DNA of 32,000 bases. It comes from an uncultured archaeon. Its GTDB lineage: Archaea; Asgardarchaeota; Thorarchaeia; Thorarchaeales; Thorarchaeaceae. The stretch's first letter is position 1. The number at the start of each line of letters is the position of its first letter. The stretch spans positions 167,208 to 199,207 of the forward strand of contig CAYHAA010000004.1 in the NCBI GenBank assembly GCA_964354495.1. The letters run 5' to 3'. The notes under the pieces were generated by a model, which had not been told where the DNA came from, did no database searches, and was given only the letters and a program-made list of their open reading frames with translations. A program made the position numbers and the translations under genes. Positions 1 to 4,437 of this stretch are shown here, in pieces.

Positions 1-414
1 CCCACACGTATTGATGTCGAGCGACGAATAGAGGACTTGAAACTATGTGACAATGTACATCTCTTGGGTGTGAAAAGCAACATGCAGGAAATCATGTGTT
101 CCTCTGACATCTTCTTGCTCAATTCGACACTTGAGGGAATGCCTCTCACGCTCTTGGAGGCCATGGCATGCAGCCTTCCTGTAATCACAACACCTGCAGG
201 CGGAATTCCTGAGCTCGTTCGTGCAGACAAAGATGGAATTGTCACGAAGGGCTTCGAGCAGGAGGAGTTTGCACAGGCAATTCTTCACCTCCTTGAGAAT
301 GAGGGCGAAAGAAAGAGACTGGCAAAGGCAGGTCGACAACGTGTCAATACTTTTGACTCCAACAAGATTGTTCCTATGTACGAGAATGTGTTCAACGAAG
401 TCGTCAAACGTTGA
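1..414 (+). CDS. Glycosyltransferase family 4 (GT-B), 5'-truncated by window edge; BshA-like by context
   Basis: Frame is open from base 1 (PTRIDVERRIEDLKLCDNVHLLG...). GT4 C-terminal E-x7-E signature EGMPLTLLE, followed by AMACSLPVITTPAGGIPELV. Its TGA stop overlaps the next gene's TTG start (TTGA, 411-414). Confidence 0.9.
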   Translation, partial: PTRIDVERRIEDLKLCDNVHLLGVKSNMQEIMCSSDIFLLNSTLEGMPLTLLEAMACSLPVITTPAGGIPELVRADKDGIVTKGFEQEEFAQAILHLLENEGERKRLAKAGRQRVNTFDSNKIVPMYENVFNEVVKR

Positions 415-2144
415 GGAGGACGTATATCGTGAAGCCGAGCGTCTATGATGTGTATCACGACTTCATCTGGAAAGGGAAAGACACTAAGCTCGCTCAGATA
501 CTGTATGATAGTCCGCCGCTCACAATGAATGGGATATGTAATCGAGTGCCAGAGCTCATGAAGAAGTATGAGAAGACTCTCTGGCATATTGACGAACGAA
601 TGAAGCTTCTTGAGAGAACTCTCATCTCCTCAAATCGGGACCTTGGATGCCTCACAGAAGACACCAGGTCCAGTATCAGGTCTCTGAAGAACGGAGCCAT
701 TGAGTCAGCACACCAGACTGTGGTTCTGGGGGGTCCTGTGTATGTCCTGAACAAGGCAGCAACAGCAAAACGACTTGCCAGTCTATGCGCTGAGAGAGGA
801 CTTGACCTTGCACCCTTCTTCTGTCTTGCGGACTATGACGTTGTTCAGCCAGAACTCACGAATATCCGTCTACCTGTACTGGGTTCAGAGTGCACACTCG
901 TGAGCATCCCAGTGCCTCAGGGCTATGAGAACTCACCAGTGAGTGTGCTTCCCCTACCAGCGAGAGACTGGTACAATCAGGTTGAGGACGATATCAGAAC
1001 AACTTACAGGCCGATGTTCAAAGCACTAGAGGGACCTTCTAGAACGCTTCTAGATGAGCGGCTTGAGCAGGCCTTGTCGATTCTTCGTTGGAGTTACACC
1101 AACTCCACAACTCTGGCAGAATGGGCAGCACGAACACTGGGCAGGCTGTTCAATATAGAAGGCGATTTGGGCATCCCACTGCTCTTAGCATCTTCTGAGG
1201 GTATCAGAGACCTTCTTGTCGAGGGCCTGGAGTTCCTTCTGGCTCGTGAGAACCGGGAGAGATTCTTGGCCACGTTCAATGAAGTGACCACACTGATCGA
1301 GGAGAAAGGATACAACCCTGGAATTGGTTTCAGAGGAACTGATTACGTGCCATTCTTCTATGATTGTCCCGGAGAAACCTGCAATAAAGCAAGGACAGAA
1401 CTTCACTATGAGGACAGAGGGACAACTGCGCTTCTCACTGGAACCTGCCCGTCCTGCTCTGAGAAGATTGAGATTGAAACATCCGCAGATACACCATATC
1501 TCGGTGATATTGCTCGGAGTATCTCGCTACGCGTGGACTCTAGACAACTTGCAATCGACTCAATAATACCGACCGTCACCCACGTCGGTGGTCCTGGTGA
1601 AACAGCATACTATGCACAGGTGATACCCAGTGCGCGAGCGATTTCGGCTCCGTTCCCAATGTTCGTCAAGTATCCCAGAGTCTACTTCAATACGCCCTGG
1701 AATGAGCAATTGGCAAAGTCACTCGAAGAGAGAGAGATGCCAGTCCTTCAGAGAAGGGACTTGTTCAATATCATGGGGAAAGTCTCGAAATACAGAAAGA
1801 AGAACCAAGTTGATGAGATGAATCAGGAACTTGAGAACCTCGAGAGTCTGATACTGGAGAGTCACGCCGAACTCAATAACAGACTCAGAGGAATAGAGCC
1901 AATAGTTGCTGACAATTCAAGAGAAGAAGCAGCCACTCATCTTGGCCTCAAGATGGATCTAGAACGATATCTTAGTTGGGCCTTTGGCCAGTTCGCCGAG
2001 GGCAAACTAGGACAAGAGTCTTCATGGTCATGGATCGAGTGGGCCATCAATTCAGGCTTCAGTGATCTCTTTGGCCCTTATAGCCGTGCATACCTTGGTC
2101 AGATGAAGATTGGCGGCACCATCTTCATCAATTTCTCATTATGA
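411..2144 (+). CDS. bshC: BshC-like protein (bacillithiol cysteine-adding enzyme family) with Cys4 insert
   Basis: BshC-type motifs in the expected order: HQTVVLGGPVYVLNKAATA, PFFCLADYD, RQLAIDSIIPTVTHVGGPGETAYYAQV, a C-terminal coiled coil and GQESSW. Length 577 aa. Confidence 0.75.
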   Translation: MRRTYIVKPSVYDVYHDFIWKGKDTKLAQILYDSPPLTMNGICNRVPELMKKYEKTLWHIDERMKLLERTLISSNRDLGCLTEDTRSSIRSLKNGAIESAHQTVVLGGPVYVLNKAATAKRLASLCAERGLDLAPFFCLADYDVVQPELTNIRLPVLGSECTLVSIPVPQGYENSPVSVLPLPARDWYNQVEDDIRTTYRPMFKALEGPSRTLLDERLEQALSILRWSYTNSTTLAEWAARTLGRLFNIEGDLGIPLLLASSEGIRDLLVEGLEFLLARENRERFLATFNEVTTLIEEKGYNPGIGFRGTDYVPFFYDCPGETCNKARTELHYEDRGTTALLTGTCPSCSEKIEIETSADTPYLGDIARSISLRVDSRQLAIDSIIPTVTHVGGPGETAYYAQVIPSARAISAPFPMFVKYPRVYFNTPWNEQLAKSLEEREMPVLQRRDLFNIMGKVSKYRKKNQVDEMNQELENLESLILESHAELNNRLRGIEPIVADNSREEAATHLGLKMDLERYLSWAFGQFAEGKLGQESSWSWIEWAINSGFSDLFGPYSRAYLGQMKIGGTIFINFSL

Positions 2145-2176: not shown

Positions 2177-3448
2177 CTAACCAAGCTCTTTCGACAATAG
2201 ATGCCCAAGTCGCGTAATTCCTTCAGATATGATATCAGGAGGAGCATAGCAGAAGCCAAGTCGCATAGTATTGCCTTCTGGCACACTTGACTCCAGGTCA
2301 TTACCATCAGCTGTGAGCTTATGTCCAGTGATAGGATAGAAGGGGCCTCCAGGTACATAGAGCACTTCATTGGGCATTGCTACATCTTGCATGAACTCAC
2401 TTGAGTTGAAGTCAGGATTCTCGCTCTGCCACCAGATGAAGAAACCTCCGGTCGGGTCGCTGCGCGTCCCGGCTGGAAATGAGTCGTCTATTGCCTTTGC
2501 CATTGCCGCACACCTCTTTCTATACAATGGAATGGCAACTCTCATGGCATCGTCGATATGTTTGTTGTAGTACTCATCAAGGATACGTTGGGCAAACGTC
2601 GCAGTACACAGGTCAAGGTAACCCTTGTCTTTGAGAACCTGCTCTCTGACATTATCTGGCAATACTGAATACCCAACTCTCAAGACAGCTGCCTCCTTAC
2701 TACTTGTCCCAAGGTAAGCAATTCGAGAGTTGTCCTTGTCGAGGGTCTTGATGGCCTTGGGATTGTCTTTGAACTGAATCTCAGCATAAGCAGCGTCTTC
2801 AATAACGAGGATGTTATGGTTCTCACAGATATCGAATAGAGCTCTACGTCTATTCATAGGCAGAGTTGTTCCCTTCGGATTGTCGCTGTCAGGAACAACA
2901 TAGAGCAAGTCAGGATTCTTACCAAATTTGATCTTCGAGAGGTGAATAGCTCGTTCAACAAACTCCGGGATGATTCCTTTGTTGTCGGTGGGCACAGTAA
3001 TCACTCTTGCACCAAGCTTCACAGCAGGAACAAGAAATCCGAGGTATGCGGGAGCCGGTGTGATAATGACATCGCCGGGATCTATCATTGTGTCCAACAG
3101 GGCATAGAGCGCCTGCTGCGACCCATTGGTAATGGATACTTGTTCCCATTGGGTTTCGCAATCAATAGGTATCTTGCGGACCTTGCACAGTCGACGGGCT
3201 AGCGTCTTGAGGAACCATGGTTGGCCACCCGTTGGACCGTAGTTCAGATCATCCAGAGCCATCTGTGGGTCTTTTTTATACATGACACTCAATTCAGCCA
3301 TGATGTCAGCGAAGATGTCAGTAGGGATGATCCCGGGCTTTCCGCCAGCAAAATAGTACTTGACCTTGTATTTGAGAAGCGCACGTATTTGAGATTCCTC
3401 AACAAAAGAAGTCCAGGTTGCAAAACCGTAGCAGTTATCTTTTGCCAT
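2177..3448 (-). CDS. PLP-dependent class I/II aminotransferase (LysN/ARO8/MocR-catalytic-like)
   Basis: Motifs ITNGSQQAL, NPKGTTL and IEDAAY; PLP-lysine region GTSSKEAAVLRVGY; PTGGFFIW; NTMRLGF. Confidence 0.9.
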   Translation of the reverse strand: MAKDNCYGFATWTSFVEESQIRALLKYKVKYYFAGGKPGIIPTDIFADIMAELSVMYKKDPQMALDDLNYGPTGGQPWFLKTLARRLCKVRKIPIDCETQWEQVSITNGSQQALYALLDTMIDPGDVIITPAPAYLGFLVPAVKLGARVITVPTDNKGIIPEFVERAIHLSKIKFGKNPDLLYVVPDSDNPKGTTLPMNRRRALFDICENHNILVIEDAAYAEIQFKDNPKAIKTLDKDNSRIAYLGTSSKEAAVLRVGYSVLPDNVREQVLKDKGYLDLCTATFAQRILDEYYNKHIDDAMRVAIPLYRKRCAAMAKAIDDSFPAGTRSDPTGGFFIWWQSENPDFNSSEFMQDVAMPNEVLYVPGGPFYPITGHKLTADGNDLESSVPEGNTMRLGFCYAPPDIISEGITRLGHLLSKELG

Positions 3449-3636: not shown

Positions 3637-4437
3637 CTAACGAGTTTCGGCGGCTAGAGCAGCGGCAGCAGCTGCCGGGTCAGGAGCCTCGACGATGGAT
3701 CGTGCTGCAATGATGAAGTTCGCACCCGCTTCAATTGCATCACGGGCACTGCCGCCCTGAGCACCGACGCCCGGGCACATGATGGGTATCTCATCTCCGA
3801 GTACTGCCTTGACTTCCCGAATTTTCTCAGGATAGGTGGCACCCACAATGACACCGTCTACGTCCCAGAGCCGGGCTTGACGTGCAAAGCGCAGATAGAG
3901 CGGTTCAGGTTTTCGTGACCTCTCATCAGCAGCCACGGTCAGGCCATAACCATCCTTCGCACCAGCATGCGACATGTAGCAGAGAGTGATGACGCCTCGT
4001 TTTCGATTGGTCGCCGCTTCAAACACACTGTCGAGACCGCCTTCCATCCCAATGAAAGGACTGACAATGATTGCATCGAAACCAGCATCAAAATAGTATT
4101 TCGTAATCACCCTGTTTGTGTTCTCGACATCGTTCAATTTGCAGTCAATGATTGCTGTCAGACCCTCAGCATGGATCTTATCGACCAATCGTGGAATGGC
4201 ATCATAGACTCCAAGAGGTAGGACGAGGTGTCGGTTTATCTTGAACGCAACTGCATGTTCTGCAGTCTGTGAGATAAGACGCAGTGCCTCCTTCTCTAAT
4301 CGGTCCTTCTCAGCCTTTATGCCAGCAGCATCTTTGCCGGTCATATTCGCGACCAGATCCAGACCGACAATCAATTTGCTCTTCTTCACGAAACTTGTGG
4401 CTGTGAGCTTTCGCTTGTACACGTGGTTCACTCCCAT
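3637..4437 (-). CDS. pyrF: Orotidine-5'-phosphate decarboxylase
   Basis: LIVGLD, FKIN, catalytic DCKLNDVENT (D-x-K-x-x-D), VIVGAT, PGVGAQGG, IIAARSI. Confidence 0.95.
   Translation of the reverse strand: MGVNHVYKRKLTATSFVKKSKLIVGLDLVANMTGKDAAGIKAEKDRLEKEALRLISQTAEHAVAFKINRHLVLPLGVYDAIPRLVDKIHAEGLTAIIDCKLNDVENTNRVITKYYFDAGFDAIIVSPFIGMEGGLDSVFEAATNRKRGVITLCYMSHAGAKDGYGLTVAADERSRKPEPLYLRFARQARLWDVDGVIVGATYPEKIREVKAVLGDEIPIMCPGVGAQGGSARDAIEAGANFIIAARSIVEAPDPAAAAAALAAETR

Follow-up and report, generated by a model that had tools for sequence, protein, structure and literature searches.

A putative structural zinc ribbon in an archaeal-type BshC-like protein from Thorarchaeales and its likeness to the ribbon of class I lysyl-tRNA synthetase

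The window analysed here, a stretch of 32,000 nucleotides from contig CAYHAA010000004.1 of an uncultured archaeon of the order Thorarchaeales (assembly GCA_964354495.1, positions 167,208 to 199,207 of the forward strand), opens with the 3' end of a bshA gene, followed by an open reading frame that encodes an archaeal-type relative of the bacillithiol synthesis enzyme BshC. Four cysteines of the encoded protein lie together in a small beta subdomain, for which a role as a structural zinc ribbon is proposed below. Residues are numbered throughout in the 577-amino-acid (aa) frame that starts at TTG 411; numbers in the 571-aa frame are 6 lower. The features of the locus, in positions of the window, are as follows.

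1..414, + strand: 3' end of bshA (last 137 codons), encoding a GT4 glycosyltransferase; full gene at L002:11248-12414
411..2144, + strand: archaeal-type BshC-like gene, 577 aa from TTG 411 or 571 aa from GTG 429
413..419, + strand: Shine-Dalgarno-like GAGGAGG, 9 nt 5' of GTG 429, from direct reading of the sequence
1344..1484, + strand: predicted zinc-ribbon subdomain, residues 312-358, in the order strand, knuckle 1 (C319...C324), two strands, knuckle 2 (C346-x2-C349), strand
1365..1367, + strand: Cys319, predicted zinc ligand 1, placed by hhalign on the first ribbon cysteine of class I lysyl-tRNA synthetase (LysRS-I)
1380..1382, + strand: Cys324, predicted zinc ligand 2 (from conservation), with Cx4C spacing in this lineage
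1392..1394, + strand: Arg328, in the strand after knuckle 1, kept in zinc-bearing and Cys-less BshC
1446..1448, + strand: Cys346, predicted zinc ligand 3, placed by hhalign on the third LysRS-I ribbon cysteine
1455..1457, + strand: Cys349, predicted zinc ligand 4, placed by hhalign on the fourth LysRS-I ribbon cysteine
1587..1610, + strand: GGPGETAY motif, which opens the second Rossmann half; G394 is invariant, E397 and Y400 are near-invariant

The TGA stop codon of bshA (412-414) overlaps the TTG 411 start listed for the BshC-like reading frame. Because GAGGAGG lies at 413-419, and because the majority of the BshC-like homologs are 571 aa long and their alignment begins at query residue 8, GTG 429 is preferred as the start, and the true product is probably the 571-aa protein. 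The original prediction, a note made from the letters of this DNA alone, had pointed to cysteine codons at 1365, 1380, 1446 and 1455, and reading of the plus-strand frame confirmed all four within the peptide YVPFFYDCPGETCNKART...LLTGTCPSCSEKIEI. That note had interpreted the cysteines as an insert like the zinc-binding insertion of LysRS-I, foreign to bacterial BshC, in a ligase that would either be ancestral-like or re-functionalised and could link BshC to enzymes like aminoacyl-tRNA synthetases, or act on a different substrate; it named conservation of the four cysteines, and a structural model searched against LysRS-I, MshC and BshC, as ways to check these ideas.

The protein belongs to the BshC family. 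It matches the Pfam family PF10079 (BshC Rossmann-like domain; UPF0747) over residues 51-419 with 54.3 bits against a cut-off of 27, a match that was also recovered in the genome search. Moreover, a profile of its archaeal and bacterial relatives aligned with Bacillus subtilis BshC (4WBD) over the full length (chain residues 3-539, E 1e-101). Across 66 archaeal and bacterial sequences, Q102, K115, D143 and G394 are invariant, and G108, E148, E397, Y400, Q535 and E536 are conserved in at least 90%; the query carries every one of these residues, together with the family motifs QQ/HQ..GGP, NK, D.D, GPGE..Y and QE. The query and the B. subtilis enzyme (YllA, the 'cysteine-adding enzyme' of bacillithiol synthesis; PF10079; TIGR03998) have the same full-length architecture of Rossmann core, connective peptides and C-terminal coiled coil, although their sequence identity is only about 16-17%. 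The closest homologs are named Thorarchaeota, and those at 26-38% identity are named Promethearchaeota, Ranarchaeia, Harpocratesius and Bathyarchaeota; bacterial-type BshC was first met in the homolog search at E 1e-13 or weaker. The gene was found in 11 of the 41 sampled genomes of the host's phylum, including all five of the host's family, and BshA and BshC homologs in Asgard archaea were mentioned in a 2020 review.

All four cysteines were kept in 120 of 120 homologs of 55-93% identity, whereas at the five other cysteine positions of the query (43, 80, 126, 138 and 161) a cysteine is found in only 1 to 93 of the same 120. The cluster is judged real because of this conservation and not because of composition, since the presence of 4 of the 9 query cysteines inside 31 residues is only mildly unusual. 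Conservation extends to distant relatives: among 27 full-length representatives of 26-38% identity, C319 is present in 27, C346 in 27 and C349 in 26, so that three of the four positions are near-invariant. The second ligand position is more variable and is occupied in the same 27 proteins by cysteine in 18 (as CxxC, Cx4C or CxC), by aspartate in a CxxD arrangement in 7 and by a later histidine in 2; eight distant members have the CxxC spacing of LysRS-I. Cysteine, aspartate and histidine are all zinc ligands. In the tree described below, the aspartate and histidine variants are confined to a single clade.

The members of this clade are P0129, P0131, P0134, P0136, P0139, P0140, P0144, P0146 and P0149. 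Since P0144 lacks the fourth cysteine in addition, its metal site may be degenerating.

The ribbon segments of 73 bacterial-type BshC representatives all lack a Cys4 site, and that of the B. subtilis enzyme (4WBD) is entirely free of cysteine. The impression behind the original prediction, that bacterial BshC has no such site, was therefore correct. The term insert, in contrast, was not upheld, given that bacterial BshC has the same beta segment before the second Rossmann half in a shorter, Cys-less form (median length 34 residues, against 45 in the archaeal type, i.e. about 11 fewer) and without the Cys4 site, or its Cys3 plus Asp/His variant, of the archaeal proteins. The region is not an added domain; judged from these alignments, it is a version of a subdomain common to all BshC that is predicted to carry zinc. 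Two residues of the subdomain, Phe315 and Arg328, are conserved in zinc-bearing and Cys-less BshC alike, Arg328 being conserved in at least 90% of the 66 archaeal and bacterial sequences and invariant in a 58-sequence alignment of the ribbon.

An AlphaFold2 model of the whole protein, built with a 66-sequence alignment, reached a pLDDT of 95.7 and a pTM of 0.94. DSSP assigned strands to residues 315-318, 328-335, 339-345 and 352-358 of this model, with the knuckles C319/C324 and C346-x2-C349 between them. The resulting C-x4-C...C-x2-C arrangement, with strands on either side of each knuckle in both the whole and the isolated models, is the pattern of a zinc ribbon. When the whole model was compared with solved structures (VIA), 4WBD scored Z 38.3 with 469 residues aligned over model residues 9-575. 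It was followed by the LysRS-I of Pyrococcus horikoshii (1IRX) at Z 24.1 and a root-mean-square deviation (rmsd) of 3.1, with 300 of the 322 residues of chain segment 3-324 aligned, a range that contains the 1IRX zinc ribbon. GluRS, ArgRS, MetRS, CysRS and MshC scored between 10.7 and 12.9, with MshC and CysRS at 10.7-12.1. Foldseek returned the same order (4WBD 2e-19, 1IRX 1.9e-8, the others above 3e-3). Furthermore, a model of the ribbon subdomain in isolation (pLDDT 88.7) found solved zinc ribbons as its top matches, all of them weak: NrdR residues 1-45 (Z 4.4, rmsd 2.0, 42 residues), ZPR1 (Z 4.3) and A12.2 of RNA polymerase I (Z 3.3-3.4). All these scores lie below 5, in line with a fragment of 62 residues, which is too small for decisive structural mapping.

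The likeness to LysRS-I (PF01921; TIGR00467) can also be followed in the sequences. The ribbon region reads WWPAMVYCPEH...YKCPEGH...KLRWRVDW in 1IRX, WYPASVVCPEC...FECKSCG...KLVWRVDW in the LysRS-I of the host genome and DYVPFFYDCPGETC...GTCPSC...SLRVDS in the query. A CxxC...C..C ribbon occupies this place in 30 of 30 Asgard LysRS-I sequences, and Kaur et al. counted 1IRX among zinc ribbons (PMC5906684). In both LysRS-I and the query the ribbon immediately precedes the second Rossmann half, and its flanks are alike: (W/Y)xP...C leads into it and RVD follows. Profile comparison by hhalign of the archaeal BshC-like proteins with LysRS-I gave E 2.8e-5 and 74% probability over 203 columns, placing C319, C346 and C349 on LysRS-I ribbon cysteines 1, 3 and 4 with the flanking P-F and RVD motifs in register; the ribbon with its flanks alone gave 64%. 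The resemblance to the LysRS-I ribbon, as distinct from its status as an insertion, was thus borne out by the motif, by the alignment of three cysteines and by the fold score of 24.1.

The catalytic domains of the two proteins have a common fold, the LysRS-I score being about double that of the other synthetases, but knuckle 1 is CxxC in LysRS-I (CxxH in 1IRX) and Cx4C in the query. LysRS-I has HIGH and KMSKS motifs, whereas the query has neither, with AHQTVVLGGP at the hhalign-aligned positions of the former and no KMSKS-like loop. The query gave no match to PF01921 or lysS, and in place of the helical anticodon-binding domain of LysRS-I it carries the C-terminal coiled coil of BshC, the alignment with 1IRX ending at residue 324. 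The GGPGETAY motif may correspond in position to EPAGKDH of LysRS-I, a pairing for which hhalign gave no confident alignment. Our literature search found no paper that names BshC together with lysyl-tRNA synthetase; since the BshC structure paper (VanDuinen 2015) fell outside its coverage, the fold relation has possibly been published.

The LysRS-I of the host itself (L003:1459-3132, on contig C1 of the host genome G000) passes the archaeal lysS equivalog with 409 bits and is the only LysRS found, with no class II LysRS match above cut-off in the genome. It has DMSTS at the place of KMSKS, with no lysine in the loop, and the form DM(S/K)T(S/H) is found in many LysRS-I sequences of Asgard archaea.

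A quick, unrooted maximum-likelihood tree of 63 representatives separated zinc-bearing from Cys-less proteins by a single branch with an SH-aLRT support of 100. The zinc-bearing side comprises 28 archaeal-type proteins and a separate pair, P0191 and P0249. Because LysRS-I, the only plausible outgroup, also has the ribbon, the ribbon would otherwise have to be gained independently two or three times, which takes more steps than loss of the metal ligands on the bacterial BshC branch, and parsimony favours, rather than demonstrates, such a loss. The link that the original prediction drew between BshC and the synthetases is reasonable in view of the score of 24.1 to 1IRX, while its description of the enzyme as ancestral-like goes as far as this parsimony argument.

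Taken together, we propose, with a probability of about 0.68, that the four cysteines belong to a structural zinc ribbon of archaeal-type BshC, kept from a LysRS-I-like ancestor, whose ligands were lost in bacterial BshC. The cysteines would make up two knuckles that clamp a small subdomain of three to four beta strands, placed where the connective-peptide region gives way to the second Rossmann half. In bacterial BshC the shorter, Cys-less beta subdomain would correspond to this zinc-bearing ribbon, which would have been inherited from the LysRS-I-like ancestor before the metal ligands disappeared towards the bacterial enzymes. The likely job of the ribbon would be to keep rigid, at the edge of the catalytic cleft, the strand that bears Phe315 and Arg328, and it probably takes no part in the chemistry and does not affect the choice of substrate. 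We favour a structural role because the predicted site has four protein ligands, which would occupy every coordination position and leave none to a substrate, because it lies outside the Rossmann signature motifs, because bacterial enzymes work without it and because it is acidic (mean net charge -3.5 in the Thorarchaeota family and -1.0 in the distant members). The SWIM-type zinc subdomain in the acceptor-binding domain of bacterial GluRS may offer a parallel, being likewise a small Cys/His site among the connective peptides of an enzyme with a class I Rossmann fold, although GluRS is a different family and a weaker structural match (Z about 12-13); work cited in PMC12088422 describes it as having lost its ligands in many lineages while keeping its fold. 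Our literature search found no paper describing a ribbon in BshC.

Several observations weigh against this proposal. The query scores 64.9 bits against the NCBIfam BshC equivalog TIGR03998, far under the cut-off of 265.8. For the isolated subdomain, Foldseek ranked 1IRX no higher than 19th (E 0.78), and the matches that VIA listed for it in a wide search and in a second look (Z 4.4 or lower) did not include 1IRX. When the ribbon cysteines were masked or the ribbon was deleted, the hhalign match to LysRS-I vanished (2% probability), and the bacterial-type BshC profile gave no match to the LysRS-I profile (0.2%). As the match is lost on masking, the sequence signal may in part reflect Cys-Cys scoring between unrelated ribbons, and no sequence homology is claimed outside the ribbon. 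Common descent with LysRS-I is consequently argued mainly from the fold score and the shared position of the ribbon, with the sequence link confined to the ribbon. Moreover, an unrooted tree is also compatible with a gain in the archaeal branch. Finally, the BshC reaction has not been reconstituted in vitro, bacterial enzymes included, and its activated cysteine donor is unidentified (PMC4360819, PMC5790435), so that the same chemistry in the archaeal protein is an assumption.

One alternative is that the cysteines were acquired within one lineage on a pre-existing hairpin, for example for stability, and that the likeness to LysRS-I is coincidental. The confinement of sequence similarity to the ribbon, the Cx4C of knuckle 1 against CxxC in LysRS-I and the lack of a root would all suit such a gain. 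It would leave to chance, however, that the ribbon occupies the same topological position in the closest structural relative, that P-F...C and RVD flank it in both proteins, that it recurs in the second, deeply separate BshC-like group (P0191/P0249) and that eight distant members have CxxC as in LysRS-I, and we regard convergence as improbable. Another unlikely alternative is that an RNA or protein partner docks on the ribbon, the enzyme requiring tRNA or using Cys-tRNA as the activated form of cysteine. In GluRS and LysRS-I the zinc domain of the connective peptide is turned towards the acceptor arm of the tRNA, and LysRS-I, which at Z 24.1 is the closest structural relative of BshC, is among the synthetases that need tRNA for amino-acid activation. 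Moreover, some activated form of cysteine is assumed for the undetermined BshC reaction, the BshC active site has been described as open to a partner, and the zinc domain of GluRS lies within its acceptor-binding domain according to work cited in PMC12088422. Against docking, the ribbon is acidic rather than basic in both sets of proteins, bacterial BshC functions in vivo without the cysteines, the anticodon-binding domain is absent (the 1IRX alignment stopping at residue 324) and no conserved partner gene adjoins the locus.

Two further alternatives assign the metal a chemical task. Zinc-Cys4 redox switches are known in Hsp33 and RsrA, and in an enzyme of thiol redox metabolism a site of four thiolate ligands could act in the same manner, oxidants freeing the zinc and thereby changing the activity of an enzyme that makes the thiol buffer; the exchange of cysteine for aspartate or histidine in one clade shows that the ligand chemistry is somewhat variable. 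Yet the same ribbon is found in LysRS-I and in the glycan-cluster relatives described below, which have no redox context, and this distribution fits a plain structural site, so a switch appears quite doubtful. CysRS and MshC, for their part, select cysteine by means of an active-site zinc, and the query enzyme is expected to add cysteine, which would make binding of the substrate thiolate by zinc attractive. MshC, the mycothiol cysteine ligase (3C8Z), has the class I Rossmann fold in common with the query, as does CysRS, and plays an analogous role in attaching cysteine to a glucosamine-based precursor. In those enzymes, however, the zinc that binds the substrate thiol is in the active site, whereas in the query all four predicted ligands come from a peripheral ribbon with no coordination site to spare, the cysteines outside the ribbon (43, 80, 126, 138 and 161) are poorly conserved, the site is absent from bacterial BshC and the fold is far nearer to LysRS-I than to CysRS or MshC (Z 10.7-12.1). 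Thiolate recognition is accordingly very improbable.

The structural ribbon thus remains our preferred reading, and the surroundings of the gene bear on the reaction of the enzyme that carries it. The adjoining GT4 gene matches the BshA equivalog TIGR03999 with 386 bits against a cut-off of 274, and contains the Pfam domains Glycos_transf_1 and Glyco_transf_4. A gene for a PIG-L deacetylase diverges upstream of the bshA/BshC-like pair; its product matches BshB1 best, with 80 bits where the cut-off requires 182, and an archaeal GlmM is encoded further upstream. Given the coupling to a BshA equivalog and the neighbouring PIG-L deacetylase, the archaeal enzyme most likely serves as the final enzyme of a bacillithiol-type thiol pathway, as far as gene context and sequence can indicate. 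Bacterial BshC has in common with the query both this linkage to bshA and a PIG-L deacetylase and the family-invariant residues. The possibility that the enzyme ligates a different substrate, raised by the original prediction, is not indicated for this gene and was rejected on the bshA/bshB context and the retention of all family-invariant BshC residues.

A comparable arrangement occurs in Bathyarchaeota (L035:4291-10518), where genes for a PIG-L deacetylase, an Amidohydro_2 protein, a zinc-ribbon BshC-like protein, Thioredoxin_9, a GT4 glycosyltransferase and two DinB_2 proteins are followed by MerR/GyrI-like regulators. DinB_2 is the superfamily of the bacillithiol and mycothiol S-transferases. 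The host genome encodes six DinB_2 paralogs, which are candidate thiol S-transferases, whereas no match to bacilliredoxin (PF06491) was found in this 97.7% complete genome. The six genes lie in G000 at the following positions.

C21:33551-33919: DinB_2 gene
C2:105448-105804: DinB_2 gene
C3:204827-205195: DinB_2 gene
C22:2445-2792: DinB_2 gene
C11:54471-54815: DinB_2 gene
C10:18141-18503: DinB_2 gene

To our knowledge, a bacillithiol-type thiol has so far been measured in no archaeon, and the present locus adds to the evidence that some Asgard archaea make one. The analysis also defines a large archaeal branch of BshC, spanning Asgard archaea and Bathyarchaeota, with a conserved predicted metal site, and identifies class I LysRS, rather than MshC or CysRS, as the nearest structural relative of the family by a wide margin. 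BshC is the single step of bacillithiol synthesis whose chemistry is still undefined (PMC5790435, PMC4360819). The outcome is a concrete evolutionary origin for the family and a set of more synthetase-like enzymes for attempts at reconstitution, with or without tRNA. In its most far-reaching form, the ribbon branch would keep the architecture of a tRNA-dependent LysRS-I-like ancestor, BshC-type enzymes would activate or receive cysteine by way of tRNA or Cys-tRNA, and Asgard archaea would make a bacillithiol-type thiol. This combination is a long shot, and the ribbon itself is most likely an ordinary structural zinc site; if the tRNA part were true, it would account for the BshC reaction not having been reconstituted since 2010 and would make the archaeal zinc-ribbon enzymes a tractable entry point.

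On the other side of the BshC-like gene, a class I/II aminotransferase gene (window 2177-3448, - strand) converges on it across a 32-base gap and is followed by a gene of the OMP-decarboxylase family (window 3637-4437, - strand); neither has an evident link to the thiol genes.

The second BshC-like group, represented by P0283 at L037:6001-7635 (in the cluster of P0191) and by P0249, consists of proteins of 519-544 aa with a CxC...CxxC ribbon and no Pfam match. Its gene stands in a glycan cluster between two PIG-L deacetylase genes, together with genes for WbqC, DegT, hexapeptide and GNAT acetyltransferases, a GT2 glycosyltransferase and a flippase. From this context, members of the group may couple an amino acid to an amino sugar that has been deacetylated, rather than make a thiol.

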